Below, piece after piece: positions 30,791 to 48,964 of a stretch of DNA of 64,000 bases (the stretch's first letter is position 1; each line of letters starts with the position of its first letter). The DNA is from Oceanispirochaeta sp. (lineage in GTDB: Bacteria; Spirochaetota; Spirochaetia; DSM-2461). A program made the position numbers and the translations under genes. Under the pieces are notes generated by a model. The model was not told where the DNA came from. It did not search any database and saw nothing but the letters and a program-made list of their open reading frames with translations. The stretch covers positions 672,001 through 736,000 of the forward strand of contig CAXXOA010000001.1 in the NCBI GenBank assembly GCA_963666275.2, in the 5' to 3' direction.

Positions 30791-32733
30791 GGGGCTGTTG
30801 CAAAAGTCTGAAAAGACTTTAGTAGCAGCCTTTTTCTTTTTTGAATGAATCGAACAAAGCATTTAGACTGCAAAAAGGGGCCGCAAAGCGACCCCAGCGT
30901 GCTACAATTTGTTTAACCACAAACAAATAAAAAGGAGCACGTGGTGAATCTTACAGCATTTTCCCAACATAGACAATTATTTCTTGATTTAAACATCTCA
31001 ATCCCCTTTGAAGTAACAGAACATGAAGCAGCACTTATGATTCTGTTGCAAAACCTAGATTACAGCCAGTTTGAACAACCAAAGCAGAAATCAGGACGTC
31101 CACGAGCTGTCAATTCATACACAATGATGCTGATTCTTCTGTATGCCAGGATTCATGGCAGGTTTAGTTCGCGAGATGTAGAACGTTTATGCAAACGAGA
31201 CCTTTTCCTTTTGCAAATCTTAGGTAATCAGAAAGTCCCAGACCATACGACGTTTGACCGTTTTGTTCATACCCATGAGAAAGCCATTGATGAACTATTT
31301 TTTCAGATAGTCGTTCGTCTGGATGCATTGGGAGAGCTTAAGAAAGATGTTGTCTATCAAGATGGCACTAAAATAGAGTCAAAAGCTGGTCGATATAGTT
31401 TTGTCTGGAAGAAAGCGACTAAAAAGAATCTGGAGAAACTCCATAACCATATCCGGAATTTGATTACTGAAGTTAATGATATTTTCTCCTGGCACTTGGA
31501 TCCAGGAGATTATCACACCTCATTGAAAATCCTCATAGAGAAGCTTGTTGCAACAGGAGAGCCTCTTTTCCCGAAGACAACAGGTCGAGGCCACCGAATC
31601 ACGAGAGTTCAGAAATTCTATCGAGATGCTCTTGTTTTCCTGGAGAAACTGGAAAAGTACAATGAATACCTGACTGCCATGAAGGGTAGGAACAGCATGA
31701 GTAAAACTGATCCTGATGCCACGTTTATGCGAATGAAAGAGGACTATATGAGGAACGGGCAGCTGAAACCAGCTTACAACCTTCAAGTACTAGTTGATAG
31801 CGGATATGTTGTCGGAGCTCACGCCAGTGACGATCGCACTGACTATGTAACCATGTGTCCTGCACTGGATCATATGCATGAACATCTGCCCTGGACATAT
31901 TCAAAATACTGTGCGGACAGCGGATACGACTGTCAACAAAACTATGAGGCTCTGGAAAAACAGAATATAGAGGCTTTCATCAAGCCCCAGTTACACGAGC
32001 AATCAAAGAAACGAAAATTCAAAAAGGATATCGGAAAGAAAGAAAACATGATTTATGATCCTTCAACCGATCATTTCATTTGTGCGAAGGGAAAGAAGCT
32101 AAAACTGAAATATGTTCGATCCAGGAAGAATCAATACGGTTATGAAACGACAACACATACATATCGTTGTGAAAGAGGGTGTAAGAGCTGCTCTCTCCGT
32201 TCTTCCTGTATAAAACGAAGTAAGGCAGACTATAAACAGGTACAGATCAACCACAAGCTGTCATCTTATCAAAGAAGAGCTACTGCTTTGATATCCAGTC
32301 CGGAAGGTAAAGAAATCCGTGTTAATAGAAGTATTCAGGCAGAAGGAGTATTTGCTCAGATCAAAGCCAACTGGTCATTCAGGAGATTTTTACGGGCAGG
32401 AAAAACAGGTATCTATACAGAATGGCTATTAGTTTGTCTGGCTATGAATGCTGTTCATTTGGGAAATAGATTATCCCGAGATGAAGTTGGTAATCCCTTC
32501 TATTATCAGATAAAGGATGAATCAGCATAGCTCTAAATCCATTTTTTAATAGATAATGTATAGTCTCAGGTGCATCACATAGGATAAGTGTCAGTAAATT
32601 ACTAAACAAAATGGGAAATTATCAGAATTTTTATTACCAGAACAGAAGTTGTGATCTAAATAGTGATCAAAATAAAAAGAATTTGATTAATGAAAAAAAG
32701 AGGCTGTCGCATTTTTACTTTTGCAACAGCCCC
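30791..32733 (+). mobile_element. IS1182-family insertion sequence
   Basis: Perfect 17-bp terminal inverted repeats ggggctgttgcaaaagt (30791-30807) / acttttgcaacagcccc (32717-32733) flanking a transposase; visibly AT-richer than flanks. Confidence 0.9.
30941..32530 (+). CDS. IS1182-family DDE transposase
   Basis: GRP, SSRDVE, PDHTTF, DGTKIES, SKTDPDATFMRMKED, KPAYNLQ, ADSGY, RSIQAEGVFAQIK. Confidence 0.93.
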   Translation: MVNLTAFSQHRQLFLDLNISIPFEVTEHEAALMILLQNLDYSQFEQPKQKSGRPRAVNSYTMMLILLYARIHGRFSSRDVERLCKRDLFLLQILGNQKVPDHTTFDRFVHTHEKAIDELFFQIVVRLDALGELKKDVVYQDGTKIESKAGRYSFVWKKATKKNLEKLHNHIRNLITEVNDIFSWHLDPGDYHTSLKILIEKLVATGEPLFPKTTGRGHRITRVQKFYRDALVFLEKLEKYNEYLTAMKGRNSMSKTDPDATFMRMKEDYMRNGQLKPAYNLQVLVDSGYVVGAHASDDRTDYVTMCPALDHMHEHLPWTYSKYCADSGYDCQQNYEALEKQNIEAFIKPQLHEQSKKRKFKKDIGKKENMIYDPSTDHFICAKGKKLKLKYVRSRKNQYGYETTTHTYRCERGCKSCSLRSSCIKRSKADYKQVQINHKLSSYQRRATALISSPEGKEIRVNRSIQAEGVFAQIKANWSFRRFLRAGKTGIYTEWLLVCLAMNAVHLGNRLSRDEVGNPFYYQIKDESA

Positions 32734-32739
32734 TTTTTT

Positions 32740-34011
32740 TTACTGATCCAGAGGGATCGGATCCCCTTCGTTTTTGTACATACCTTTAAATTCAACATAA
32801 TCTGCTGTGGAAAAAGTACTATCATTTACAGCGATATTAAAATAACAAGGTTCGTAGGGAAGGTCAGACCAGGCTAGATATTTATTAAATCTTAATTCCA
32901 GAAACCCATCACCCGCACCACCGGTGTGTCCGCTACTATCTTGAGATGCATTGTAATTGACTTGAAAAGTACTTGTTAACCAGTCAGAACCATCATATTC
33001 CGCGTAAAAATTGTGTGAATAGGCTCCATTTTCCTGATCTACGTAAATATCAACGGAAGTTATGGCTCCTATGGAGCCGGAATCATAAAAAGTCAGCAGA
33101 AAGTAGATATAATCATCGTCTTGTTTTATATACACTTTATCAATGTCAGTATTGACTTCTCCAGAGTTATCGTCAGTCAAGACGAAATCCTGATACCAGT
33201 AGCCATATTCTTCCCATGCGGTTATATCAGCCAATGAATTATCATCACATGTGGGGGTTATTCCTCTGTAAAACTGCACAATAGGAGAGTCCATGCTCGG
33301 TTGGGTATCAGAAGAGCTTTTCAGGAGAATATTGAACGTATTTTCATCATTGGAATTATCTATATTCCCATCACCATACAGATTTTCATGATACTGGTAC
33401 CACGAACCAATATGAAAATTCATTCCTGAATCAGATGGTATATAGTTCCAATACGTTGCCTTGGATATCCCAAGCTCAATTGCATTTTCAGATTCATTAA
33501 TCCCTGCAAACCTGATTCCTGCATTATTCAGATCGTAATCTCCCGTGTCATCATAATACCTTGACCAGAAACCAATTGTTCCGTCACTTGTTATTCCGCC
33601 ATCTGGAGAATTGTGGGTTAAATTGAAAAGATTTATCCCATAATTTGATTCATTCAGATCAAAACTAACACTTATACTGGGTTCTGTTAAAGGATTTCCA
33701 TTATAGGATTCAATAAAAAAATAGAGAGTATCATTATCCTGAGCAGCTTTTAACTGGTACAGGTCTCCCCCTGCTATCATGGGGTAGCCGTTCTGAGCTG
33801 TATCTGAAGAGTCATCTGTATACAGAGGCTCTACGTTATCCCAATCCAACAGATCGCCGTCAATAGCAATATCATCCCTGTATTCCAGAGTAATCCCATC
33901 CTGGCCAGTCGGGTCATAGGGGTTGTCGAATACCATATCTTCATACATAAAGCATGCGGATAATAGAAGAGCGGCTCCTGCTGTAATGAAAAAAAGGCCC
34001 GTTTTTCTCAT
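32740..34011 (-). CDS. Acidic, AT-rich lipoprotein with two related beta-rich (DOMON/CBM9-like) units
   Basis: Lipobox LLLSAC; IDGDLLDW...DLYQLKAAQDNDTLYFFI echoed by DIDKVYIKQDDDYIYFLL. Confidence 0.7.
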   Translation of the reverse strand: MRKTGLFFITAGAALLLSACFMYEDMVFDNPYDPTGQDGITLEYRDDIAIDGDLLDWDNVEPLYTDDSSDTAQNGYPMIAGGDLYQLKAAQDNDTLYFFIESYNGNPLTEPSISVSFDLNESNYGINLFNLTHNSPDGGITSDGTIGFWSRYYDDTGDYDLNNAGIRFAGINESENAIELGISKATYWNYIPSDSGMNFHIGSWYQYHENLYGDGNIDNSNDENTFNILLKSSSDTQPSMDSPIVQFYRGITPTCDDNSLADITAWEEYGYWYQDFVLTDDNSGEVNTDIDKVYIKQDDDYIYFLLTFYDSGSIGAITSVDIYVDQENGAYSHNFYAEYDGSDWLTSTFQVNYNASQDSSGHTGGAGDGFLELRFNKYLAWSDLPYEPCYFNIAVNDSTFSTADYVEFKGMYKNEGDPIPLDQ

Positions 34012-34204
34012 AAAACTAAGTATAACAGAAATATAATAACCCCTCTATGGAAAAATGCATTCTTATAGGGAAACAGCTCTGTTAAGGTTCCATTAATTCC
34101 GTATGAGAAATAGGTTATGTCTTTTAGGATGATTTAAATACCTGAATATAAACAAAATAGATGTTTTTTAAGCCAGCAGGTCGGTCCCGCGTATGGTCAA
34201 CTCC

Positions 34205-34265
34205 TGTTAAGGTTTCTTAACATAAGCTAATTTACTTTGACAGACCGGAAATCTCTTTCTAATGT
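34205..34265 (+). promoter_or_regulatory. Promoter of the cysD operon with an upstream palindrome
   Basis: TTGACA (34237-34242)-17 bp-TAATGT; perfect palindrome TGTTAAG-gttt-CTTAACA (34205-34222). Confidence 0.55.
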
Positions 34266-34271
34266 GTTTCT

Positions 34272-35153
34272 ATGGACCAACTGGATCAATTAGAAAGCAT
34301 CGGCATAAGAATCCTCCGGGAAGCTTATGCGAATTTTAAAAACCTGTGCATGCTCTGGTCAATCGGCAAGGACAGCACGGTTCTGTTATGGCTTGCCCGT
34401 AAAGCTTTTTACGGGCATGTTCCCTTTCCTCTGGTACACATCGACACACACTACAAGATTCCCGAAATGATCGAGTACAGAGACCGGCTGACCCGGGAAT
34501 GGAAACTGCCCATGGTCTACGGGGAGAACTCCGAAGCCCTGGCGGCCCATCAGACCTTTCCCGAAGGCAATGTGGACAGACTGACCTGCTGCCGCCTCCT
34601 GAAGGCCGAAGCCCTGAAGAATACCCTGAACGGAAGCTGGAAGCGTTACCGGTTCAATCATTCCACCGACCAGTATGAACTGGACAAGGATACGGAAATG
34701 TACACCGGAGTCATCGTGGGTGTACGGGCCGACGAAGAGGGGTCCCGTTCCAAGGAACGCTACTTCAGCCCCCGGGACAAGGAGAATATCTGGGACGTGG
34801 GAGATCAGCCCCCCGAGTTCTGGAACCAGTTTAAAACTGATTTTGCTCCGGGAACCCATGTGAGGATTCATCCTCTCCTGGACTGGACCGAGCTGAATAT
34901 CTGGGAGTACATCGAACGGGAGCAGATTCCCACGGTCTCCCTCTACTACGATCAGGGTTCAGGTCAGCGCTACCGTTCCCTGGGATGCGGTCCCTGTACC
35001 AATCCTGTGGAATCCACCGCAAAAAATGTGGGGGATATCATCACCGAGCTGAAAACAGGCAAGTTCGCCCATATCGCCGAGCGGTCCGGTAGGGCCCAGG
35101 ACAAGGATGACGGAGGCGGACTGGAAACTCTCAGAAGGGACGGGTACATGTGA
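34272..35153 (+). CDS. cysD: Sulfate adenylyltransferase subunit 2
   Basis: [11 protein letters not shown]-loop, [35 protein letters not shown]. Confidence 0.95.
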
Positions 35154-36961
35154 TGAGCAGAGATCAGATGAATATCGTCTTTACAGGACATGTGGACCAT
35201 GGCAAGAGTACGGTGGTCGGACGCCTTCTGGCCGATACGGACTCCCTTCCCGAAGGAAAGCTGGAACAGGTCAAACGGGAGTGTGAGCGCAACTCCAAAC
35301 CCTTCGAATACGCCTTTCTGCTGGATGCCCTGAAAGATGAGCAGTCCCAGGGCATCACCATCGATTCGGCCCGTGTCTTTTTCAATACTGAAAAGCGCGA
35401 CTACATCATCATCGACGCACCGGGTCATATCGAGTTTCTGAAAAATATGATAACCGGGGCAGCCCGGGCGGAAGCGGCTTTTCTTGTGATTGACGCCGAT
35501 GAGGGGGTTCAGGAAAACTCACGGCGCCACGGATACCTCCTCTCCATGCTGGGGATCCGTCAGCTCTGTGTCCTTGTCAATAAAATGGACCTGGTAGGTT
35601 ACAACAGGCAGGTCTATAACAAAATTGTGCGGAAGTACTCCCGGTTTCTGAAAAATATCAATCTCACCGATGTCAACTTCATTCCCGTCAGCGGCCGGGA
35701 AGGGGACAATATCTTCCACAGGGGCGGGAACATGCCCTGGTGGGAGGGCGGTACCGTTCTGGAGCTGCTGGATGCGTTTAAAAAAGAAAAACCTCTGGAC
35801 GATCTTCCCATGAGGATGCCTGTGACGGATATCTACAAGTTCACCAACTATGATGATTCCAGAAGGATCATTGCGGGGACTGTGGAAACCGGTAAATTCA
35901 AGCCGGGAGATGAGTTGATCTTCTATCCCTCCGGAAAGAAAAGTAAAATCAGAACAGTAGAAAGCTTCAATGCGGAAGTTCCTGCGGCTGTGACTGCCGG
36001 AATGGCTACAGGTGTCACTCTGGAGGAGCAGATCTATCTCTCCCGGGGGGCCGTGGCCTGCCGTTCCGACCAGCTGCCTCCCAAAGTGGGGAGCTATCTG
36101 AAAACAAGCCTTTTCTGGCTGGGCAAAGAGCCCCTTGTCAAAGGGAAAGAGTACATGCTGAAAAACGGAACCTCCAAGGTCCGGGCTCAGCTGGCCGAAA
36201 TTACCCGAGTCATCGATGCCTCCTCTCTGGATACGGAAAACACCCAGGAGCAGGTCAACAGGCATGAAGTGGCCGAATGTGTGTTCAGTCTCCAGAAAGC
36301 CATTGCCTTCGATCTGGTGGAGGAACTGCCCCAGACCAGCCGGTTTGTTCTCGTGGACGGGTATGAAATCGCCGGAGGAGGAATTATCCGTGACGTTCAT
36401 GACCACGGGCAGACCGAATACGGCGAGCAGTTGATCCGAAGAACCCTGGAGTGGGAAAACGGTATCGTCACCGAACTGGACAGGATGCAGACCTATGGTC
36501 AGAGACCCGCGCTGATCCTTGTCTCGGGTGAGCTGAACGGCGGAAAGAAAGCCTTTGCGGAAAAGCTTGAAAAGGAGCTCTTTTCCCTGGGAAAAAAGGT
36601 CTACTATCTGGGATACAAGAGCATCAAATTCGGACTGGACTCGGACCTCAGGGACGGCCGGGCCGAACGGCGTCAGCAGGCTGCCCGGGAAGAGCATATC
36701 CGCAGGATTGCCGAGATCGCCCATATCATGCTGGATGCGGGGCTCTTTTTTATAGTTAAAATCGATAATCTGACCTACGAGGAGAGGGATCTTATTCAGC
36801 TCCTCATGGGATCCTCCCGCCTGAAAACTGTCTGGGTGGGAGAAAAAATAGCGACGGACATTCAGCCTGACTGGCATGTAAAACGGCCTCTTGCTGTGGA
36901 CGAACATATGAAAGAAGTTCAGCAGATTCTGGTGGACTGGGAACTGGTGGAGGTACGTTGA
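35150..36961 (+). CDS. cysN: Sulfate adenylyltransferase subunit 1 (GTPase) with degenerate C-terminal APS-kinase-like domain
   Basis: [25 protein letters not shown]-terminal CysC-like region with altered P-loop SGELNGGKK. Confidence 0.92.
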
Positions 36962-38253
36962 TGAAGCAGTTCGAACCGACAAAATATAAAGTGCAGGCCC
37001 TTTGCTGCGGAAAAGTCTTCAGTGATCAGGGGCAGCCCCTGTCCTGTCCCGACTGCTCGGATCCGCATTTTCTGAGGGCTGATTATGAGAAGAAACAGCT
37101 GGACGTCAAAGAGGATGCCCTGGGGCTCTACAGATTCAGTGACTGGCTCCCTGTGGAAAAGACCCTGGAAGGCTCGGGAGCGCCTGTGACCTTCAGGAGC
37201 GAAAAACTGGCCGGGAAACTGGGCCTGAGCAATCTGTGGATCACCTTTAACGGCTGGTGGCCCGAAAAAGGCGCCTTTATGAAAACAGGAACCTTCAAAG
37301 AGTGCGAAGCCTACTCGGTCTGTGCCAGAATTCCAAAAGGAAAAAAGGGCATTCTGGTCGTGGCTTCCGCGGGAAATACAGCCAGGGCATTTGCCCGGGT
37401 GTGCTCTGAAAACAACATTCCCCTGGTCATCACCATCCCCGAAGACAATCTGGGTGCCATGTGGTCGGACAAACCTCTGGCGGACTGTGTCAAAATCATT
37501 GCCGCCTCCTCGGGGTCGGACTACTTCGATGCCATCGATCTGTCGAACAAAATCTGTCAGGGCGAAGATTTCTTTCCCGAAGGGGGCGCGAAAAACATAG
37601 CCCGGAGAGACGGAATGGGAACAACGGTCCTTTCCGCTGTGACAGCCATCGGTGAGATTCCCGACTACTATTTTCAGGCTGTCGGGAGCGGTACAGGCGC
37701 TATCGCCGCCTGGGAAGCCAATCTGAGATTCCTGAAAGACGGAAGGTTCGGCAATAAAAAGATGAAACTGATGGTCTCCCAGAATGCCCCGTTCAAAATT
37801 ATCTATGACTCCTGGAGGGCCGACAGCAGAGCCCTGGTGGCTCTGGATGATGATGAAGCCAGGCAGCAGGTGATTGCCATGAACGCCAAGGTGCTTTCCA
37901 ACCGGAAACCTCCCTATTCTTTGCCGAACGGTCTTTACGATGCCCTCAAGGATACAGGGGGAGATGTCCTTTTGGCGGACAATGAGGAAGCTGCCGAAGC
38001 GGGGCGCCTTTTCAGGGAGACCGAAGGAAATGATATCTCACCGGCTGCCTCGGTTGCCTTGGCATCTTTGATAAAAGCTGTTAACAATGATACGGTGAAG
38101 GCCGGCGAAACGGTGATGCTCAACATAACCGGAGGCGGCATGGGGCGATTTGCCTCTGAAAATACAGTAACAATTGCCAAAGCGGACCTTGTGTTTTCTC
38201 CCCGGGTGGATACACAGGAGCTGATAGAAGCGGTAAGAGATTTATTTAAATAA
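36958..38253 (+). CDS. Cysteate synthase (threonine-synthase-like PLP enzyme; CapA-like)
   Basis: N-terminal [69 protein letters not shown]; embedded in a sulfite-generating operon. Confidence 0.85.
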
Positions 38254-38293
38254 AAAGGTTTATTCAAACAACTCGATTAAGTAGGAGAAAACT

Positions 38294-39580
38294 ATGAGTG
38301 TAGATATTTTTGACAAGTGTAAAACAGACGGTGGATATTTCGGTAAATACAGAGCCGCCGGCGATAGAGACCTGACACGGCCCACCATGGATCCGATCCC
38401 CGGGAAAACCATGCAGTACAAGGGAGAAGAGTACGTGATGTGGTCTGTGAACAACTACATCGGACTGGCTGAAAACCAGGAAGTCAAAGCCGCTGCGGCC
38501 GAGGCTCTTGCGTCTTTCGGAACAAGTGCTCCCATGGGTTCCAGGATGATGAGCGGTAATACCCAGCACCATCAGGACCTTGAAAAACGCCTGGCTGATT
38601 TTTCCCAGAAAGAAGCGGCCTATCTGTTTAACTACGGCTATATGGGTGTTCTCGGTATTGTTTCTTCCCTCTGCGGCCCCAAAGATACGGTTGTGGTGGA
38701 CAAACTGGCTCATGCGTGTATCCTCGATGCCGCCGCCATGGCAAAAGCCGCAGGAGCGACTATCCGCTATTTTAAACACAACAATATGGAAGATCTGGAA
38801 AAGGTTCTTCAGAGTGTGAATAAAGGCAGGGAAGGGGGCGTCATGATCCTCATCGAGGGGGTTTACGGTATGACCGGAGACCTGGCTGACCTCCCCGGAA
38901 TCTGCGAACTGAAAGAAAAATACAACGCCCGCCTTTTCATCGATGATGCCCATGGTATCGGAGTTATGGGAGAAACAGGCCGCGGTACCGGCGACTTCTT
39001 CGGTGTTCAGGACAAGATCGATATCTACTTCGGAACCTTCGCCAAGGCTTTCGCGTCCATCGGCGGTTACTGTGCGGCCGATCAGGATGTGATCGACTGG
39101 ATTGCCTACAATGCCCGGACGCAGGTCTTTGCCAAGAGCCTCCCCATGGTCTATGTGAAAGCTCTGGACAGAACTCTGGACTTTGTGATTGAGGGAAATG
39201 ACAGGCGTCAGAAAATGTGGGACAACTCCCATAAACTGAGAGACGGACTGAGGGAACTGGGGTACTACATCGGCCCCGGTGAATCTCCCATCTGTTCCGT
39301 TTTTACCCCCACCGGGAGCGATGATCCCAACGGCATGGGTGTGAGAATGGTAAAATTCCTGAGAGAGAACAACATCTTTGTCACAGCTGTTGTCTATCCT
39401 GTTATTCCTCCCGGGCTGTGTATGTTCAGAATGATCCCCACCACATCCCATACAGATGCGGAAATCAACAGAACCATTGAGGTATTTGCCAGGATGAAAG
39501 AGGCCCTGGAGCTGGCAGACTCGGTCACCGATGACGATATCAGCAAGATTAAAAGAGTCTACAGGGAAAGAAAATCCTGA
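38294..39580 (+). CDS. Alpha-oxoamine synthase (SPT/AONS family), predicted cysteate-C-fatty acyltransferase (CapB-like)
   Basis: NNYIGLA, GSRMMSG, HACILD, FKHNNMEDL, EGVYGMTGD, DDAHGIG, GTFAKAFASIG (PLP Lys); substrate inferred from adjacency to cysteate synthase. Confidence 0.8.
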   Translation: MSVDIFDKCKTDGGYFGKYRAAGDRDLTRPTMDPIPGKTMQYKGEEYVMWSVNNYIGLAENQEVKAAAAEALASFGTSAPMGSRMMSGNTQHHQDLEKRLADFSQKEAAYLFNYGYMGVLGIVSSLCGPKDTVVVDKLAHACILDAAAMAKAAGATIRYFKHNNMEDLEKVLQSVNKGREGGVMILIEGVYGMTGDLADLPGICELKEKYNARLFIDDAHGIGVMGETGRGTGDFFGVQDKIDIYFGTFAKAFASIGGYCAADQDVIDWIAYNARTQVFAKSLPMVYVKALDRTLDFVIEGNDRRQKMWDNSHKLRDGLRELGYYIGPGESPICSVFTPTGSDDPNGMGVRMVKFLRENNIFVTAVVYPVIPPGLCMFRMIPTTSHTDAEINRTIEVFARMKEALELADSVTDDDISKIKRVYRERKS

Positions 39581-40287
39581 TGCAGAAAGATCTGGTTGCA
39601 CAGTATCAGAAAGAACTGGCCGGCGCTTCCCCCGGGGAGGTCCTGGCCTGGGCTCACAATACCTTTGATCTTTCCGGGATTGCCCTGTCCAACAGTCTGG
39701 GGCTGGAAGATATGGTCCTGACCGACATGCTTATGAAGATTGACCGGAATTTTCCGGTGTTCACCCTGGATACGGGGCGCCTCTTTCAGGAGACCTATGA
39801 TCTCATGGAAGAAGCCCGTACCCGGTGGAAGCTGTCTATGAAGGTTCTGTTTCCCGATCGGGAAGAAGTGGAGAGTCTGATGGTCCGGAAGGGCCCCAAC
39901 TCGTTCTACTACAGTCTGGATAACCGGAAAGAGTGCTGCCGGATCAGAAAGATCGAACCCCTGAAAAAAGAGCTGTCTACTCTGGATGCCTGGATCACCG
40001 GGCTCAGAAGAGAACAGTCTGTCACAAGGAATGAAGTTCAGTGCGTGGAATGGGATGAAGCCTTCGGTCTGATAAAGATCAATCCCCTTGTGGACTGGAG
40101 CGAAAAACAGTGCTGGGATTATGTAAAAGAGCATCATGTCCCGGTTCACAGTCTCCATAAAAAAGGCTTCCCCTCTATAGGCTGTGCTCCCTGTACCCGG
40201 GCTGTGAAACCCGGAGAAGATATCCGGGCCGGCCGCTGGTGGTGGGAAAATCCTGAAAGCAAAGAGTGCGGACTGCACAGAAAATAG
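39580..40287 (+). CDS. cysH: Adenylyl-sulfate (APS) reductase, CysH family with Fe-S cysteines
   Basis: LDTG, ECCRIRK, TGLRREQS, SIGCAPCT, RAGRWWWE, ECGLH. Confidence 0.93.
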   Translation: MQKDLVAQYQKELAGASPGEVLAWAHNTFDLSGIALSNSLGLEDMVLTDMLMKIDRNFPVFTLDTGRLFQETYDLMEEARTRWKLSMKVLFPDREEVESLMVRKGPNSFYYSLDNRKECCRIRKIEPLKKELSTLDAWITGLRREQSVTRNEVQCVEWDEAFGLIKINPLVDWSEKQCWDYVKEHHVPVHSLHKKGFPSIGCAPCTRAVKPGEDIRAGRWWWENPESKECGLHRK

Positions 40288-40307
40288 ATTTATCCGTTCC
40301 CCAGTAC

Positions 40308-40338
40308 AGGGACAGTTCTCAGGAACTGTCCCTTTTTT
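40308..40338 (+). terminator. Intrinsic terminator ending the cys/cysteate operon
   Basis: agggacagtt-ctcagg-aactgtccct followed by T-run. Confidence 0.8.
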
Positions 40339-41986
40339 AATGGAAAGGAGGGAGGAGCGACACTCTTCCGCTGTTTACCGCATCCTTGAAGGTTTCATAA
40401 ATATCCTGCTCAGCCAGGATTTCAAGAATTCCTGACTTCTCCAATGTTTCCCTGACATCATGGTTCAGTCCGGAAAGAAGAACTTTGATCCCCCTTTTTC
40501 TGAGAAAGCGCAGAGCATCAAACAGGGCTTTCTGACCGGTCTGATCAATAAAGGACACATGACGCATCCTTATGATAATAGCCCTGTTTGTGATTCCCAC
40601 TTCCTTCACAACCTCCGCATACTGTCTGGCCGAGGCAAAAAACAGAGGGCCGCTGATCTCATAAATACCAAGATCAGAAGGCAGATCGGAATAGTCCTCG
40701 ATCACATCGGTATCCACAATATGATCGATCCTCTTTTCTGCGAACTCGGACATACGGATCATAAACAGAAGGCTGGAGAGCACAATCCCTATCTCTATGG
40801 CAGCAACGAGATCGACGACAACTGTCAGGATAAATGTAACCAGGAGAACAATCCTGTCGTTCCTGTTGCTTCTCAGAATGGCCGCAAAAGACCGCCATTC
40901 ACTCATATTGTAAGCCACTATAATCAGGATTCCCGCCAGACAGGGCATGGGTATGTAGGAGGCAAAGCGGCCGAAGAAAAGCATAATGCACAGAAGGGTA
41001 ACAGAGTGAGTCATTCCGGCAATAGGAGTGCGACCTCCGTTTTTGACATTCGTAGCGGTTCTGGCAATTGCACCGGTTGCGGGGATTCCTCCGAACAGAG
41101 GGGTCACAATATTGGCAATTCCCTGGGCTATCATTTCAGTGTTGGATCGGTGATTTCCGCTGATCATACCGTCTGAAACCGTGGCGGAGAGCAGGGATTC
41201 AATGCCTCCCAGAAGGGCGAGAACCAGTCCCGACTGGAGGTAGAAGGGAATATCCGAATGAACGAATCCCGGTATGGTCAGGGAGATACCCCGGGGAATC
41301 TCTCCGAAAAGAGATCCGATCGTTGACACGGGTATGTCAAGGAGCCTGACAACCAGGCTCACAAGGAGGATGGCTATAAACGACCCGGGGATCCTTTTAA
41401 AGACCCTTCCCGAAAGTAGGACAATCCCGATGGTCACAGCTGTAACCGCCGGAGCGGCAGGGTTCATATCGGAAAAGGCTCCTCCGTAGGCCTGCCATTT
41501 CTGAAAAAACTCTCCCGGGACCTTATCCAGAGGAAGGCCCAGGGCGTCCTTGACCTGGGTGGTGAATATGACCAGAGCTATCCCGCTGGTAAATCCGACA
41601 ATCAGGGAGTGGGGTATGAATTTCAGAAGTTTGCCCAGTTTCAGAACTCCGAAAAATACAAGTATGATTCCGGCCAGCAGGGTGGAATAGAAAAGCCCCT
41701 GGTATCCTTTGAGCTGAACGATTTCAAATATAAGGATTACAAAAGCCCCGGTGGGGCCGCCAATCTGAACCCGGCTTCCTCCGAGCAGGGCAATAAGAAA
41801 TCCGGCCAGGATTCCTGTGATCAGTCCCCTTTCGGGAGAGACTCCCGAAGCAACAGCAAAGGCTATGGAAAGGGGGAGGGCCACAATGCCCACCACAACG
41901 CCGGCCATAAGATCGCTGAGTATCTGCTGTTTCTCAAACCCGGATCGCAGCAGGGTAAAAAATTTGGGTGTAAACGGGTCTTTCAT
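40337..41986 (-). CDS. SulP-family anion (sulfate) permease with STAS domain
   Basis: DLMAGVVVGIVALPLSIAFA, GGSRVQIGGPTGAF, ESLLSA, GAIARTATN, GPLFFAS. Confidence 0.95.
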   Translation of the reverse strand: MKDPFTPKFFTLLRSGFEKQQILSDLMAGVVVGIVALPLSIAFAVASGVSPERGLITGILAGFLIALLGGSRVQIGGPTGAFVILIFEIVQLKGYQGLFYSTLLAGIILVFFGVLKLGKLLKFIPHSLIVGFTSGIALVIFTTQVKDALGLPLDKVPGEFFQKWQAYGGAFSDMNPAAPAVTAVTIGIVLLSGRVFKRIPGSFIAILLVSLVVRLLDIPVSTIGSLFGEIPRGISLTIPGFVHSDIPFYLQSGLVLALLGGIESLLSATVSDGMISGNHRSNTEMIAQGIANIVTPLFGGIPATGAIARTATNVKNGGRTPIAGMTHSVTLLCIMLFFGRFASYIPMPCLAGILIIVAYNMSEWRSFAAILRSNRNDRIVLLVTFILTVVVDLVAAIEIGIVLSSLLFMIRMSEFAEKRIDHIVDTDVIEDYSDLPSDLGIYEISGPLFFASARQYAEVVKEVGITNRAIIIRMRHVSFIDQTGQKALFDALRFLRKRGIKVLLSGLNHDVRETLEKSGILEILAEQDIYETFKDAVNSGRVSLLPPFH

Positions 41987-42271: not shown

Positions 42272-45200
42272 ATGGGAATGGATCTACAGACTTTAAGAGA
42301 ATACTTCAAACACATGGTTACCGCCCGTGAAATGGATCTGCTTGAGCAGAGTTACACAGGGCGTGGAGAAGCCTTCTTTCATGTATCCGGAGCAGGGCAT
42401 GAAGGAACCTGTTTTCTGAATGCCGTACTGGGCGAACAGGACTGGCTCCACTGTCACTACAGGGATAAAGCCCTCATGCTGGCGAGAGGCATCGATTCAA
42501 AGATGTTCTTTATGTCCCTTTTCAATAAAGATCAGTCCCATTCCAGGGGACGTCAGATGAATGCCCACATGAGTGATCCTGAGAGAAAGGTCCTCAGCAT
42601 TGTCGGTCCGGTAGGAAACAGCGCACTCCAGGCTGTGGGTGTCGCCGAAGCGGTTAAAGATGAAAAGGACAACCCCGTTGTCCTCTGCGGTCTTGGTGAC
42701 GGAATGAGTCAGCAGGGAGAGGTTCTGGAAGCTGTCGCTCATGCGGTAAGAAAAGAACTTCCTGTACTGTTTTTTATTCAGGATAACAGTTTTGCCATAT
42801 CGACCAAAACAAAAGGGAAAACCTTTTTCTCCCATCCTGAGGGAGATGCGGAAGAATTCTACGGAATCCCCATTGTCCGCATGGACGGACGGTATCCTCA
42901 GAATCTTTATAAACCTATGGAAGAGGTCGTACAGGGAATCCGGGATACCCGGAAACCGGCGATCGTCGTCTTCTCGGTTGACCGTCTTCACAGCCATACC
43001 AATGCGGATGATCACAGGGTCTACAGAACCGAGGAGGAGATTAAAGCTCTTCATAAATCGGGAGATCCCATAGATCAGATGCATGCCTGGCTGCTGGATC
43101 AGGGTGTCGATGAGAAAGAGCTGGAACAGGAGAGAGAGCAGATAGTTGCGGAGCTCAAAGAAAAAGCCCGGGCGGCTCAGATGTCTCCCGAACCGGAACC
43201 CTTTTTCTCTGCGAAAAAAGAAATCCCCCCTCATCTGACAGATCCGAAACAGGAGTACAGAGGAACCCCGGGAAAAGAAGAGCTTACAATGCTGGAAGCG
43301 ATCAGGGAAACCCTCCGTTTTCATCTGGAAAGGAACCCTGCCGTAGAGCTCCTGGGAGAAGATCTGGAAGATCCCAAAGGGGATGTTTTCGGAATTACAA
43401 AAACACTGACACAGGAATTTTCCCGGCGTGTGGAAAACAGCCCTCTTACCGAGTCCACCATTGTGGGGCTTTCTGTAGGAAGGGCTCTGGCTGGAAAACG
43501 TCCTGTCGCATTCCTGCAGTTTGCGGATTTTCTTCCCATTGCGTTTAACCAGCTATGGGCGGAGATGGGCAGTATGTTCTGGAGAACCGACGGCGGCTGG
43601 CAGTGCCCCATGATCGTCATGGTTTCCTGCGGAGGATACAAGCCGGGACTCGGCCCCTTCCATGCCTCCAGTATGGAATCGGTGGCTGCCCATATCCCCG
43701 GAGTCGATGTGGTTATGCCCTCCACCGCAGGGGATGCCGCAGGCCTTCTGAATGCCGCTATGGAGTCGGAAAGGCCTACCATATTCTTCTACCCCAAAGT
43801 CTGTCTGAACGAATCCCTGGGTAAAACCAGTCCCGATGTGTCCAGGCAGCTTGTTCCCCTGGGAGTGGCCAGAAAGCTCAGCGAAGGTGAGCATCTGACC
43901 ATGGTCTCCTACGGGAATACCATCAAGCTCTGCCAGAAAGCGGCGGATGTTCTGAAAAATCAGGGTGTTCACTGTGATATTCTGGACCTGCGATCCATCT
44001 CCCCCTGGGATCAGAAGGCCGTTCTGGAATCTGCTGAAAAAACAGGAAAGCTGATCATTGTCCAGGAGGAGAACGGTACAGCTTCCTTTGCTTCCGAAGT
44101 GGCGGCCTATGTGGCGGAACATGCCGGGACAGCTGTGAAAATCCGCCGTCTTACCAGAGAGGACACATTTGTTCCCTGTAATTTCGATTGTCAGCTGGCT
44201 GTACTGCCTTCCTATCAGAGGATCCTTGAAACAGCTGTTGATCTGTTCGGCGGATCCATCTCCTGGAAGAAGGATGAGTCCGCAGAAGCGGGAATCTTTT
44301 CCGTGGAGATCATCGGAACCAGTCCCGCAGACGAAACTGCCACAGTCATTGAGTGGAAGGTTGAGCCGGGTGACGTTATAGAAGAGGGGGATCTGCTGGC
44401 AGAGATCGAAGCGGATAAAGCCGCAGCGGAAATGAAATCTCCCGTATCCGGTACGGTAGAGGAACTCCTTCTGGATGAGGGAGAAGCTGTTGAGATCGGT
44501 ACTCCCGCACTGAAGGTTAAAACCGGTGAAAATGCGGAAATCTCCCTGAAACCCAAAACAAAAGAAGATCCCGGTGAACCTGTCATTTCAGGGCTTCAGC
44601 TGGAAACTTCATCAACCGACGCGGCACCGGCGGTTTCCGGTGACAGACGCCCCTACCTTGTGGATGTGGCAGGCACCCTGGGAAGCCGGGTTGTAGATAA
44701 CGATGAGATCATGAAGTCCTGTCCCGGATGGGAAGAGGGCGAAATCCTGAAAATGACAGGAATAGAAAAACGCTGCTGGATTGATGAAGGGGAGAATATT
44801 CTTACCCTTTCCCGCACAGCCTCTCAGACTGTGCTCGAAAGAAACGGACTGTCCCTGGACGACCTGAGTCTTATCATCGTTTCAAGCGGCACCCCTGATA
44901 TGATCACCCCCTCCATGGCCACTAGGCTGCAGTATGCGCTGATGCCCGGGGGAAAACGGAAAATGAGCTGTCCCGCTTTTGATATCAACGCCGCCTGTTC
45001 GGGATACCTGTACGGACTGCAGTCCGCCTGGGATTTTCTCAATACCAAGCCCGACGGACTTGTTCTTCTGGTAACAGCGGAAGTCCTTTCTCCTCTGGTG
45101 GATCTGACTGACAAGTCCACTTCCCCCATTTTCGGAGACGGCGCCACAGCCACACTGATAGCCGGTGTCAATCATAAACTGAAAGCACAGGGCAAAGCCC

Positions 45201-45616
45201 GGCTTTTCCGTCCCGTCACAGCTGCTGCCGGAGAACCGGGAGAGATCCTGACCGTTCCCGCCAACCCGGTGGAGCCTATTTTCATGCACGGTCCCAAGGT
45301 TTACCTGGAAGCGGTACAGAGCATGATCGAACTGCTGGGCAGTGCCATGGAACAGGATGGGAAGACTCTGCAGGATGTCTCTCTGATTGTCCCCCATCAG
45401 GCTAACCAGAGGATCATCAATGCAGTACGTCAGAGGCTTAAAATCAGAGAAGAGCAGATCTACAGCGAGATCAGATACAGAGGAAATACATCCTCCTGTA
45501 CGATCCCCCTCTGTCTTGAAACCCTGGTGAATGAGAGAAAATCCGGAGATATTCTGGGTATGACAGCATTCGGCGGCGGATTCACCTCTGCCGGCGGTCT
45601 TCTGGAAATTCTGTAA
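42272..45616 (+). CDS. Fusion: 2-oxoacid dehydrogenase E1alpha + E1beta + lipoyl domain + beta-ketoacyl-ACP synthase III (FabH)
   Basis: TPP motif GDG..IQDN; GEDL..GDVFG, NSPLTES, QFADF, GPFH; lipoyl-Lys IEADKA (K716); FabH triad AAC909SG, PH1042QAN, GN1072TSS. Confidence 0.9.
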   Translation: MGMDLQTLREYFKHMVTAREMDLLEQSYTGRGEAFFHVSGAGHEGTCFLNAVLGEQDWLHCHYRDKALMLARGIDSKMFFMSLFNKDQSHSRGRQMNAHMSDPERKVLSIVGPVGNSALQAVGVAEAVKDEKDNPVVLCGLGDGMSQQGEVLEAVAHAVRKELPVLFFIQDNSFAISTKTKGKTFFSHPEGDAEEFYGIPIVRMDGRYPQNLYKPMEEVVQGIRDTRKPAIVVFSVDRLHSHTNADDHRVYRTEEEIKALHKSGDPIDQMHAWLLDQGVDEKELEQEREQIVAELKEKARAAQMSPEPEPFFSAKKEIPPHLTDPKQEYRGTPGKEELTMLEAIRETLRFHLERNPAVELLGEDLEDPKGDVFGITKTLTQEFSRRVENSPLTESTIVGLSVGRALAGKRPVAFLQFADFLPIAFNQLWAEMGSMFWRTDGGWQCPMIVMVSCGGYKPGLGPFHASSMESVAAHIPGVDVVMPSTAGDAAGLLNAAMESERPTIFFYPKVCLNESLGKTSPDVSRQLVPLGVARKLSEGEHLTMVSYGNTIKLCQKAADVLKNQGVHCDILDLRSISPWDQKAVLESAEKTGKLIIVQEENGTASFASEVAAYVAEHAGTAVKIRRLTREDTFVPCNFDCQLAVLPSYQRILETAVDLFGGSISWKKDESAEAGIFSVEIIGTSPADETATVIEWKVEPGDVIEEGDLLAEIEADKAAAEMKSPVSGTVEELLLDEGEAVEIGTPALKVKTGENAEISLKPKTKEDPGEPVISGLQLETSSTDAAPAVSGDRRPYLVDVAGTLGSRVVDNDEIMKSCPGWEEGEILKMTGIEKRCWIDEGENILTLSRTASQTVLERNGLSLDDLSLIIVSSGTPDMITPSMATRLQYALMPGGKRKMSCPAFDINAACSGYLYGLQSAWDFLNTKPDGLVLLVTAEVLSPLVDLTDKSTSPIFGDGATATLIAGVNHKLKAQGKARLFRPVTAAAGEPGEILTVPANPVEPIFMHGPKVYLEAVQSMIELLGSAMEQDGKTLQDVSLIVPHQANQRIINAVRQRLKIREEQIYSEIRYRGNTSSCTIPLCLETLVNERKSGDILGMTAFGGGFTSAGGLLEIL

Positions 45617-45732: not shown

Positions 45733-46917
45733 TTAATACTGGCCGATATGGATCTGGACTGGCTGGAAATCCTGCAGATCCTCATCTATCATAAAGAATT
45801 TTTTGATCTCAACAGGTACGTTCTGGTTAATGGTTGTGTAATTTCCCAATTCTCCATAGTCGTTTTTTCCAAATCCCCAGAGAGTTCCGTCCTCTTTCAG
45901 AACAATGGTATGGTCTCCTCCGTTATGGCTGATAGCGGAAACGTCATTCATGACTTCTTTGAAGACGGCAGCATTGGTATTTGTACCGTCTCCAAGCTGC
46001 CCCTGATCATTGCGTCCCGTCGTCCATAAGGTTCCATCGATTTTGAGTGCTACGGTGTGAAAACGACCTGTGGAAATATCGACAACATCGGAGAGAACCT
46101 GTTCAAAAGCTAGTCTGTCAGCGGTATCACCCGTTCCTAACTGGCCGTAGGTATTGCCACCCGAGGCCCAGAGGGTGCCGTTTGTTTTCAGGACCATAGA
46201 ATGGGCAGTCCCTGCAGAAACACTTAAGACTCCCGTTATTATTTGAGTAAAATCGGCTATATCAGATGTATCGCCGCTTCCAAGCTGTCCCCGGGAGTTT
46301 CCGCCGCTAACCAGTAGGTCTCCGGAAGTGTCCACCACCAGAGAAAAGTTATTTCCCGTATCCATAGTTTTTACGCTGCTGAGCACTTTTTCCGGTGTTG
46401 CCATACCAGTGGTTGAAGTTGTACTGTTACCAAATTGTCCATCTTTATTCAAACCTGCTGCCCAGAGGGTCCCGTCGTTTTTTAACATAAGAGAAAAATC
46501 AGTTCCTGCAGAGGCTTTTTTGGCATTGTCCATAATTTTAACAGGTGAGGCAACTTTAGCAGAAGCACTTCCTGTTCCCAGTTCGCCTTCCGTGTTGTCT
46601 CCCATCGCCCATAGAGTCTTGTCTGACTTAAGAAGGAAACTGTGATTCTCTCCTGCAAAAATACCAATTACATCCTCCAGTATCTTCTGGTAGTAGTTGT
46701 ATTGGTCGTTTGATAATTTACCAAGCTGACCTTTGTCATTTTTTCCTGTACCGTAAAGGCTACCGTTGCTGTTGAGGAAAAATGAGTGATCCCCTCCGGC
46801 GGACAAAGTTGTATCAATTGATACCTTGTCTCTGTTACTGCTGCTGAACATGCCGTTGTCGCATCCAGACAGTAGCAGTATTAAAATTGTGAATCCTGTG
46901 AAAATAGTTTTTTTCAT
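45733..46917 (-). CDS. RCC1/BLIP-II beta-propeller repeat lipoprotein
   Basis: Lipobox LLLSGC; about 7 repeats of G..HS..LK.DGTLW..G.N..GQLG. Confidence 0.9.
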   Translation of the reverse strand: MKKTIFTGFTILILLLSGCDNGMFSSSNRDKVSIDTTLSAGGDHSFFLNSNGSLYGTGKNDKGQLGKLSNDQYNYYQKILEDVIGIFAGENHSFLLKSDKTLWAMGDNTEGELGTGSASAKVASPVKIMDNAKKASAGTDFSLMLKNDGTLWAAGLNKDGQFGNSTTSTTGMATPEKVLSSVKTMDTGNNFSLVVDTSGDLLVSGGNSRGQLGSGDTSDIADFTQIITGVLSVSAGTAHSMVLKTNGTLWASGGNTYGQLGTGDTADRLAFEQVLSDVVDISTGRFHTVALKIDGTLWTTGRNDQGQLGDGTNTNAAVFKEVMNDVSAISHNGGDHTIVLKEDGTLWGFGKNDYGELGNYTTINQNVPVEIKKFFMIDEDLQDFQPVQIHIGQY

Positions 46918-47911: not shown

Positions 47912-48964
47912 CTAGTCTCTGACCCGGCCCAGGCCCAGGAGTTTCAGCAACCACTTGGCCAGAGGTTTGGCGGGGTTCCTTTTTTTCAGATTCAGATACC
48001 AGTTCCATTTTTTCACGATGGGGATTTTATGGGTTTCCACGAATTCGATCAGCGTTCCATCCGGATCTTCACAGTAGGAAAACCGGCCAGCCGCCTCTCC
48101 CATGTCAAAGGAGTTTCCCGTATCCACGGTAAAAGGAAAGCCTTTTTCCCTGAGAGTTTCTCCCAGTTCATCCATGCCGTTCACATCGAAGCAGAGATGG
48201 ATAAAACCGGCATCTCCCCAGTAACGGTCTTTGAAGATTTTTTCAGGTTTCCGTTCCAGGCACTGGATCAGCTCTATGCTTCCGTAGCCGAACATCTCCG
48301 CAAACGCTCCCTGTCTCGGTTCCATATGGGTCAGCAGAACTCTTCTGAATGAACCGTCTCCTCCGGGCAGGGCGGAAAGGTCTTCAAAACTTCCGGTCTG
48401 ATCATAAGCTGTGGTGGAGTATCCCAGAATATCACGGTACAGGGGGAGGGCTTTGTCTATATCGCTGACGCCGATCACAGCTCCGCAGGGGCCTGCAGTC
48501 AGACCGGGTCTGCTGAAGAAATCCTCAGCCGTCAGAATCTCAAAAATATTACCGTAAGGATCCCTGGCATAAAAGTGGTCTCTTCCGACAGGATCCTTTT
48601 CCACTTTTCCCAGGATATCCACGCCCTGATCTCTGTAATGATCAAAAACGGCTTTTACATCAGGAGCTTTTATTTTGCCTATCTGTATTCCCAGGTCACC
48701 TATCTTCAATGGGGCGTCGGGGAATACTGTCTCCCTGGTGGTGTACTGCCAGATTTCAAATCCGCTGCCTCCGCCAAGGTTCAGAGCCAGAACCGCATCC
48801 CGTCCCTGGACTTTGTCTCCTGTGTAGCGGGTCATGAAGGGGGCATCTGCCGCTTCCTGAAATACAGGGACATCCATGCCGAAATATTTTCTGTACCAGG
48901 CCCAGGCTTTGTTCCTGTCGGCTACGCCTATACCTAACTGCTGAATTCCGCTGATGATTGTCAT
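47912..48964 (-). CDS. Two-domain VOC (glyoxalase/epimerase-like) protein
   Basis: QQLGIGVAD, FEIWQY, RDPYGNIFE, IELIQ, FIHLCFDV, EDPDGTLIEFVE. Confidence 0.88.
   Translation of the reverse strand: MTIISGIQQLGIGVADRNKAWAWYRKYFGMDVPVFQEAADAPFMTRYTGDKVQGRDAVLALNLGGGSGFEIWQYTTRETVFPDAPLKIGDLGIQIGKIKAPDVKAVFDHYRDQGVDILGKVEKDPVGRDHFYARDPYGNIFEILTAEDFFSRPGLTAGPCGAVIGVSDIDKALPLYRDILGYSTTAYDQTGSFEDLSALPGGDGSFRRVLLTHMEPRQGAFAEMFGYGSIELIQCLERKPEKIFKDRYWGDAGFIHLCFDVNGMDELGETLREKGFPFTVDTGNSFDMGEAAGRFSYCEDPDGTLIEFVETHKIPIVKKWNWYLNLKKRNPAKPLAKWLLKLLGLGRVRD

Follow-up and report, generated by a model that had tools for sequence, protein, structure and literature searches.

What does a spirochaete make of sulfite in an operon that also encodes two enzymes of sulfonolipid type? 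The question is raised by a stretch of 64,000 nt from Oceanispirochaeta sp. (contig CAXXOA010000001.1, positions 672,001–736,000, forward strand; hereafter the window), in which cysD and cysN are followed by genes for a cysteate synthase, an alpha-oxoamine synthase and an adenosine 5'-phosphosulfate (APS) reductase. An earlier note, made from the sequence of the window, had proposed a capnine-type sulfonolipid operon. Our analysis suggests, with a probability of roughly 0.75, that the operon makes a 3-ketocapnine-type base and that a VOC-fold enzyme encoded downstream acts in the same pathway. The operon extends the known sulfonolipid pathway, in variant form, to another phylum and adds an uncharacterised accessory enzyme. 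The enzyme identities rest on sequence tests and the flux is deduced; the link of the VOC gene to the pathway rests on synteny, nested occurrence and co-loss, and its chemistry is proposed. What the window newly brings is the co-loss evidence, the dead end for sulfite, the promoter, the negative lipid table and the proposed mechanism.

Sulfonolipid synthesis has been said to be limited to Bacteroidota (PMC10191378), and sulfonolipids have been used as a Bacteroidetes marker in sediments (PMC12766260). In a survey of gut genomes, the prioritised pathway genes were found in 9632 Bacteroidota genomes and in one Firmicutes_A genome (PMC11525784). The literature searched, subscription papers lying outside it, yielded no publication that deals with sulfonolipids of spirochaetes or with a VOC enzyme of this pathway. 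Together with the related clusters of Clostridia and Marinimicrobia, the spirochaete operon would lessen the value of sulfonolipids as a Bacteroidetes marker and extend these lipids to a second type of cell envelope. The features on which the argument depends are as follows.

34272-35153, + strand: cysD, ATP sulfurylase small subunit (293 aa; NF003587 339 bits, cut-off 195)
35150-36961, + strand: cysN, ATP sulfurylase GTPase subunit with a degenerate APS-kinase tail (603 aa; TIGR02034 344.5, cut-off 336)
36958-38253, + strand: cysteate synthase of archaeal/Alistipes type, acting on phosphoserine and sulfite (431 aa; TIGR03844 469.6 bits, cut-off 324.9)
38294-39580, + strand: predicted cysteate C-acyltransferase, orthologue of CFAT/CapB/SulA, hereafter CFAT (428 aa; PDB 28EH 355 bits, 7U7H 332 bits)
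39580-40287, + strand: thioredoxin-dependent APS reductase (235 aa; TIGR02055 264 bits, cut-off 235; CC + CxxC iron-sulfur motifs)
40308-40333, + strand: intrinsic terminator-like hairpin of 11 pairs, with a T-run to 40339
47912-48964, - strand: four-module VOC (glyoxalase-fold) protein (350 aa), 7.6 kb downstream of the operon

Route from sulfate to 3-ketocapnine

The five open reading frames (ORFs) are joined by overlaps of 4, 4 and 1 bp and a single 40-bp gap and end at the hairpin, with a SulP gene convergent on them. This arrangement had been described correctly in the earlier note, and its naming of cysD, cysN, the cysteate synthase and the APS reductase is borne out by the family cut-offs. 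The host genome is 5.27 Mb in size and 97% complete; its assignment to a spirochaete agrees with the 94% identity of the CFAT to that of an Oceanispirochaeta metagenome-assembled genome (MAG).

CysDN would convert sulfate to APS. The kinase tail of CysN scores 44 bits with the apsK model (cut-off 139) and carries the altered P-loop GELNGGKK, unlike an active bifunctional CysNC; the P-loop is altered in most of the 15 CysN tails aligned. This degenerate tail is the sole PF01583 match in the genome, which makes synthesis of 3'-phosphoadenosine 5'-phosphosulfate (PAPS) unlikely. With the kinase tail degenerate, the APS reductase would yield sulfite from APS itself, and its protein is below the cut-off of the PAPS-reductase model. 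The sulfite-reductase domains PF01077 and PF03460 were not found across the 97%-complete genome; each is present in 11 of 14 control genomes. Sulfite would most likely go to cysteate, because a sulfite-reductase domain is missing from the genome and the APS-kinase tail is degenerate, and sulfate activation would feed cysteate rather than cysteine. The proposal that sulfate passes through APS, sulfite and cysteate to an acyl-cysteate condensation, and so serves a lipid route, is supported by these results and by the enzyme identities given below. The earlier note had seen neither a sulfite reductase nor a cysteine synthase in the window; CysK-like ORFs (named by sequence inspection) are present elsewhere in the genome at C2:430706 and C2:1431041. 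SerC is also encoded elsewhere in the genome, above its cut-off.

The cysteate synthase would join sulfite and O-phosphoserine. The model check suggested in the earlier note separates it clearly from threonine synthase, whose models score ≤63.9 bits on this protein, and the match to PDB 9K3C (520 bits, E 4e-155) compares with E 1e-16 for threonine synthase. Cysteate synthases have been split into a CapA type and an archaeal/Alistipes type, and by that split the spirochaete gene is no CapA homologue (PMC10191378), which corrects the comparison with CapA drawn in the earlier note. It resembles the archaeal-type enzymes of Alistipes and Odoribacter in both scores and differs from them in sharing an operon with cysDN and the APS reductase.

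Gene 4 is supported as a CapB/SulA orthologue, predicted to condense cysteate with an acyl thioester, probably a C13–C16 acyl-(acyl carrier protein), to 3-ketocapnine. Its best PDB matches are CapB, also called CO-CFAT, of Capnocytophaga ochracea (28EH) and SulA of Alistipes finegoldii (7U7H), ahead of SPT 3A2B (223 bits), KBL (207) and BioF (159), and it is below every curated cut-off for BioF, KBL and SPT. Lys281 has been proposed to tell SulA from SPT, which has Ala at this position (PMC9304779); it is present in all 78 CFAT-type rows, including the spirochaete enzyme, and in none of 8 other oxoamine synthases. The cysteate pocket of CapB includes N52, G81, A82, F113-G114-Y115, H139, C141, E187, F245, A249, K250, M277 and F278 (PMC13692747). 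The spirochaete enzyme keeps Lys281, Gly115, Tyr116, Cys142, Glu188, Phe246 and Ala250 of CapB together with the pyridoxal phosphate (PLP) lysine, Lys251, and 16 of the 19 pocket positions compared are identical. It differs by Ser83 for Ala82, Tyr114 for Phe113 and Val278 for Met277.

In a quick tree of 86 rows, the phylogeny that the earlier note had called for, the enzyme groups with a Capnocytophaga proxy of CapB (support 99), apart from SPT, KBL and BioF; the tree held no characterised sequence, and the proxy scores 787 bits to CapB. Within this group it belongs to a non-Bacteroidota subclade of Spirochaetota, Bacillota and Marinimicrobia (support 89). Besides the match to the Oceanispirochaeta MAG, identity is 82% to other Spirochaetales and 40–46% to Bacteroidota CFATs. 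The separate clade and an operon with its own sulfite supply distinguish it further from SulA and CapB.

A second candidate entry enzyme is encoded at C1:204000-206408 on the - strand (L135:12001-14409). It is an 802-aa fusion of an N-terminal domain, GNAT-like by inspection and without a model match, with a domain of SPT type that scores 444 bits with NF047600, below cut-off, and has Ala where CFATs have Lys281. Entry enzymes for both sphingolipids and sulfonolipids may be present in this genome, the two being possibly exclusive in Bacteroidota according to a review.

Distribution of the operon and linkage of the VOC gene

In 80 CFAT loci, many of which end at a contig edge, the cysteate synthase gene lies just upstream of CFAT in 29 and all five genes occur in order in 11, so the gene order is not due to chance. 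Full operons are also found in distant spirochaetes (L147, L148). CFAT itself is patchy, being present in 21 of 41 relatives (one copy broken) and in 15 of 201 genomes sampled across Spirochaetota.

Four loci from Ruminiclostridium, Thermoclostridium and Bacillota MAGs (L018, L020, L021, L028) carry genes in the order VOC, cysteate synthase, CFAT, SDR and AprA-like APS reductase, in some cases with a ferredoxin gene. This clostridial reductase is not homologous to the spirochaete one and has the same cysteate synthase and CFAT beside it; on this comparison, sulfite supply was solved independently here. Provided that these genomes are binned correctly, Bacillota also have sulfonolipid genes. 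In L013 and L014, CFAT is followed by the VOC gene, in L013 also with an SDR. A further CFAT clade (L012, L015-L017, L019, L029, L077) is without a nearby cysteate synthase or VOC gene and is followed by genes for a CAAX-protease-like protein and an HpnA-like reductase. Its near-identical loci stand under conflicting labels (Eubacteriales, Aminicenantes, Acidobacteriota), some of which are probably wrong.

The VOC gene, missed in the earlier note, has CFAT nearby in 33 of 81 loci, which belong to Spirochaetota, Clostridia, Marinimicrobia, Chlorobi and Bacteroidales, and forms an SDR-CFAT-VOC operon in one Bacteroidota genome (L137). Its occurrence is largely nested within that of CFAT. Among relatives it is present in all 21 CFAT genomes and in 1 of 20 others, a 74% complete genome that has cysteate synthase and no CFAT match. 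Across the Spirochaetota sample, it is present in 12 of 15 CFAT genomes and in none of 186 others. The Bacteroidota sample gave 31 of 58 against 0 of 103, many of these matches probably coming from close kin, with the named relatives being Balneolaceae. In Bacteroidia the counts were 79 of 181 against 3 of 20, in a sample that includes the unpublished genomes G549 and G481, the latter carrying one of the three exceptions.

The strongest evidence for the link between VOC and CFAT is their co-loss in two genomes of the same genus. In G006 (one contig, 95% complete), leuB is followed by a PDH-FabH fusion gene and then by dus, with neither the operon nor the VOC gene left; they were lost by two separate deletions, one on each side of the intact PDH-FabH gene. 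In G010, only fragments of CFAT and VOC are left, on either side of an intact PDH-FabH gene. At the locus, cysD, cysN and the APS reductase gene were lost together with cysteate synthase and CFAT in both genomes. The earlier note had considered the operon self-contained, which it is not, given its tie to the VOC gene and the location of a candidate ketoreductase gene on a different contig.

The VOC family is large, with 7960 of 8000 scored candidates at E ≤ 0.001, and the ESM Atlas names for the protein are 'VOC family' only. A large, unannotated and genetically tied family is a concrete enzyme candidate for the unexplained variety of sulfonolipids, including IOR-1A. A divergent subfamily (~30% identity, with His9/Glu256 for Gln9/His256) was seen in the CFAT-bearing genomes G248, G212, G226 and G288 (L142-L145), and G288 has both types. 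At seven loci (L038, L039, L041, L045, L047, L056, L058) a gene for a second, KBL-like oxoamine synthase immediately precedes the VOC gene on the same strand and converges on the operon. In three Bacteroidota loci (L139, L140, L141) the VOC gene abuts or overlaps a gene for a membrane acyltransferase of PlsC type that might O-acylate a diol or capnine; for the PlsC-like enzymes beside VOC (L139-L141, L009), no clear cluster-tied counterpart was seen in the host genome.

VOC fold, candidate products and alternatives

The structure model of the VOC protein (pLDDT 95.8) fits plant glyoxalase I, GLOD4 and PcpA with Z of 20–25 and a root-mean-square deviation of ~3 Å over 255–272 residues, in a 1+4 module pairing, and fits HPPD and extradiol dioxygenases poorly (TM ~0.3). 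The protein is below the family cut-offs for glyoxalase I (32 vs 120 bits) and methylmalonyl-CoA epimerase (30 vs 115 bits). A putative metal site of Q9, E70, H256 and E307 is conserved, with E70 and E307 invariant, Q or H at position 9 and Glu in place of H256 in divergent members. In an alignment with 6BU2, Q9, H256 and E307 stand opposite His, Gln and Glu residues that we take to be metal ligands there. A four-ligand set with two opposed glutamates is of the proton-transfer kind found in glyoxalase I and methylmalonyl-CoA epimerase, whereas dioxygenases use two histidines and one carboxylate. Arg208, Arg247, Trp249 and Asp251 are also invariant; the two arginines could bind the sulfonate, and the C-terminal helix looks basic and amphipathic. 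The protein shares its module pairing and, putatively, the Q/H, E, H, E ligand positions with maize glyoxalase I (6BNN), GLOD4, PcpA (4HUZ) and methylmalonyl-CoA epimerase, and differs from them by an identity of 11–16%, a degenerate second site, the four further invariant residues, the C-terminal helix and its strict-anaerobe carriers. Oceanispirochaeta isolates are strict anaerobes (PMC11129491).

Most likely, the VOC enzyme would act on 3-ketocapnine, an alpha-amino ketone, by moving its acidic C2 proton. A possible course is a glyoxalase-like 1,2-shift, which would give a 2-imino-3-hydroxy and then a 2-oxo-3-hydroxy sulfonate with release of ammonia, to be reduced by an SDR to a 2,3-diol sulfonate of the IOR-1A type. 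Epimerisation at C2 of 3-ketocapnine is a rather doubtful alternative outcome; two reduced epimers have been seen in KCR assays (PMC11211663). The candidate ketoreductase, an SDR at C2:594678-595493, reaches 269 bits against a profile built from 10 SDRs adjacent to CFAT or VOC. The kcr genes of C. gleum and A. finegoldii are not clustered with cfat and cys (PMC11211663).

We tentatively suggest that the VOC enzyme opens a sulfonolipid branch in which 3-ketocapnine is deaminated to nitrogen-free 2,3-diol sulfonates of the IOR-1A type, possibly O-acylated. On the same tentative reading, this branch would span Spirochaetota, Clostridia, Marinimicrobia, Balneolaceae/Rhodothermales and ~40% of the sampled Bacteroidia. 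IOR-1A, a 2,3-dihydroxy sulfonolipid of Algoriphagus and relatives, is a signalling lipid made by only some sulfonolipid producers, and its biosynthesis has only been hypothesised (PMC9825905). It resembles the product suggested here as a deaminated 3-ketocapnine derivative, its m/z of 351.22 being that of the diol computed from a C15 donor; the difference lies in the route, as its authors suggest transamination followed by reduction (PMC9825905). If true, the diol branch would supply the missing step for this choanoflagellate rosette inhibitor and explain the capnine-free positive-mode lipidomics of Oceanispirochaeta. Set beside the Bacteroidota capnine/sulfobacin pathway (CapA or Cys, CapB, CapC/KCR, N-acylation), the spirochaete system has the cysteate and 3-ketocapnine steps and a KCR-like SDR candidate in common. 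It differs by its host, by the VOC partner, which is unmentioned in the searched text on that pathway, by having no N-acyltransferase identified, and by having no capnine listed for the isolates M1 and M2. The two key enzymes would place it on the Alistipes route to 3-ketocapnine by their family and structure matches, with the reductase as a candidate only.

The intact polar lipids of Oceanispirochaeta M1 and M2 comprise cardiolipins, glycolipids, phosphatidylglycerol, phosphatidylcholine and an unknown phospho-sugar lipid (PMC11129491). M1 and M2 very probably carry the cluster, because RefSeq MULTISPECIES records for 'unclassified Oceanispirochaeta', a group made up of M1, M2 and 'sp.' only, hold CFAT (86% identical) and VOC (68% identical), with accession numbers three apart in each of three assemblies.

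Several observations weigh against our reading. Table S46 of PMC11129491 lists no sulfur lipid or capnine for M1 and M2, as far as positive adducts from one growth condition can show, and the same study gives capnines for Lutibacter (PMC11129491). The 'unknown phospho-sugar lipids' were considered as sulfur lipids and rejected, no formula with sulfur lying within 1 mDa. Of the suggestion that a capnine-type lipid is made, the 3-ketocapnine steps are upheld by sequence and capnine as the end lipid is not; low or conditional expression, poor ionisation of a nitrogen-free sulfonate as a positive ion, or attachment to a larger molecule might each explain its absence. Concerning the enzymes, Ser83 replaces a CFAT pocket alanine as in SPT 3A2B (and in 37 of 78 rows), the candidate SDR co-occurs only loosely with CFAT (17 of its 20 genomes; not detected in G003), and the best fold match of the VOC protein (Z 24.9, within ~1 of the next rows) is an O2-dependent dioxygenase, the fold by itself showing no function. 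Concerning the linkage, 3 of 82 Bacteroidia VOC matches are in genomes without a CFAT match, kin genomes in the co-occurrence counts are not independent, and a strict link is contradicted by G034, where CFAT is intact, VOC is split and cysteate synthase is without a match. Even a 16-row profile detected no member of the VOC family in 32 CFAT genomes. The VOC protein is therefore an accessory enzyme; a role as universal core enzyme was rejected, as the profile gave only generic single-domain matches (4 of 64 genomes).

It is possible that the end product is an ordinary N-acyl capnine of the sulfobacin type, made at a low level or conditionally (e.g. under phosphate limitation), and that the VOC enzyme clears or repairs a reactive amino-ketone side product. 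All head-group enzymes match the Alistipes route, the conserved upstream element described below suggests regulation, the M1/M2 lipids come from a single growth condition, and VOC was not found in many CFAT genomes. However, the M1/M2 table is without capnine though the laboratory reports capnines in other strains, no conserved N-acyltransferase was found beside the spirochaete clusters in the neighbour survey, and a repair role hardly explains the operonic coupling of VOC with a ketoreductase in Clostridia and Bacteroidota. Less likely, the sulfonate base might anchor or cap a larger molecule (a glycoconjugate or protein) or be released as a signal, in either case going unseen in Bligh-Dyer lipidomics. 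Such a fate would agree with the lack of a free sulfonolipid in the M1/M2 table and with the signalling role of the related diol IOR-1A (PMC9825905), but the annotated neighbour clusters common to at least three non-Bacteroidota loci (40 representative proteins scanned) include no glycosyltransferase or exporter.

That the spirochaete CFAT has drifted to serine or another amino acid, leaving cysteate for a sulfonate solute or cofactor, is very improbable. Ser83 and the modest identity to Bacteroidota CFATs would favour such a drift, but the pocket is otherwise nearly that of CapB, with Lys281, Tyr116 and Gly115 in place, SPT-like swaps never yielded serine activity (PMC13692747), a separate SPT-like enzyme, with Ala at the critical position, is encoded in the genome, and cysteate synthase adjoins CFAT in the loci counted above. 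An assimilatory sulfate-reduction operon for cysteine, into which two unrelated PLP enzymes were inserted, is scarcely credible, for although cysD, cysN and APS reductase are the usual start of that path and CysK-like genes are present, the genome has no detected sulfite-reductase domain and the three genes were lost with cysteate synthase and CFAT in G006 and G010.

Upstream elements and neighbouring genes

Three further features flank the operon.

34205-34222, + strand: palindromic element with a TTAA-N6-TTAA core, centred ~58 nt before the cysD start
34237-34265, + strand: probable sigma70-type promoter (TTGACA, 17 nt, TAATGT), ending 6 nt before the cysD ATG
40337-41986, - strand: SulP/STAS transporter gene (549 aa), convergent on the operon; closest model DauA, below cut-off

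The TTAA-N6-TTAA element is kept at equal distance in 9 of 9 aligned same-genus upstream regions, as is TTGAC with its spacing of 35 nt to the ATG. No Shine-Dalgarno sequence or other ribosome-binding site was seen before cysD, here or in those nine regions. Together, these features point to a regulated and leaderless cysD transcript, for which the start site is predicted; the -10 element matches at 3 of 6 positions and is below the threshold of the promoter scan. The palindrome is a probable regulator site or UP-like element. No regulon is visible for it, as the strict pattern occurs twice in the genome against ~1 occurrence expected by chance, and an imperfect second copy lies ~125 bp upstream of the first, at 34079-34097.

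The SulP gene had been mentioned together with the operon in the earlier note. It adjoins the operon in only 1 of 80 loci, that of the closest relative (L001), and with DauA below cut-off as its best model it was rejected as the sulfate importer of the operon; it is probably a neighbour and not part of the system. Upstream, an IS1182-family transposase gene (30941-32530, + strand; NF033551 above cut-off) lies between leuB and a lipoprotein-like gene and is not at that place in L001. The latter gene (32740-34011, - strand), divergent from cysD and also present in L001 and L024, encodes an acidic protein of 423 aa without a Pfam or NCBIfam match. Downstream, a lipoprotein-like RCC1-repeat protein of 394 aa is encoded at 45733-46917 on the - strand, and the Dus and TatD genes beside the VOC gene are housekeeping genes. 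The PDH-FabH gene (42272-45616, + strand) encodes a single 1114-aa fusion of 2-oxoacid dehydrogenase E1-alpha, E1-beta, a lipoyl domain and a FabH-type synthase. It was rejected as a pathway member, since G006, G029, G033 and G035 have it without CFAT and it is retained where the operon was lost. The fusion occurs, independently of the operon, in 16 of 41 relatives and in all 10 same-genus genomes.

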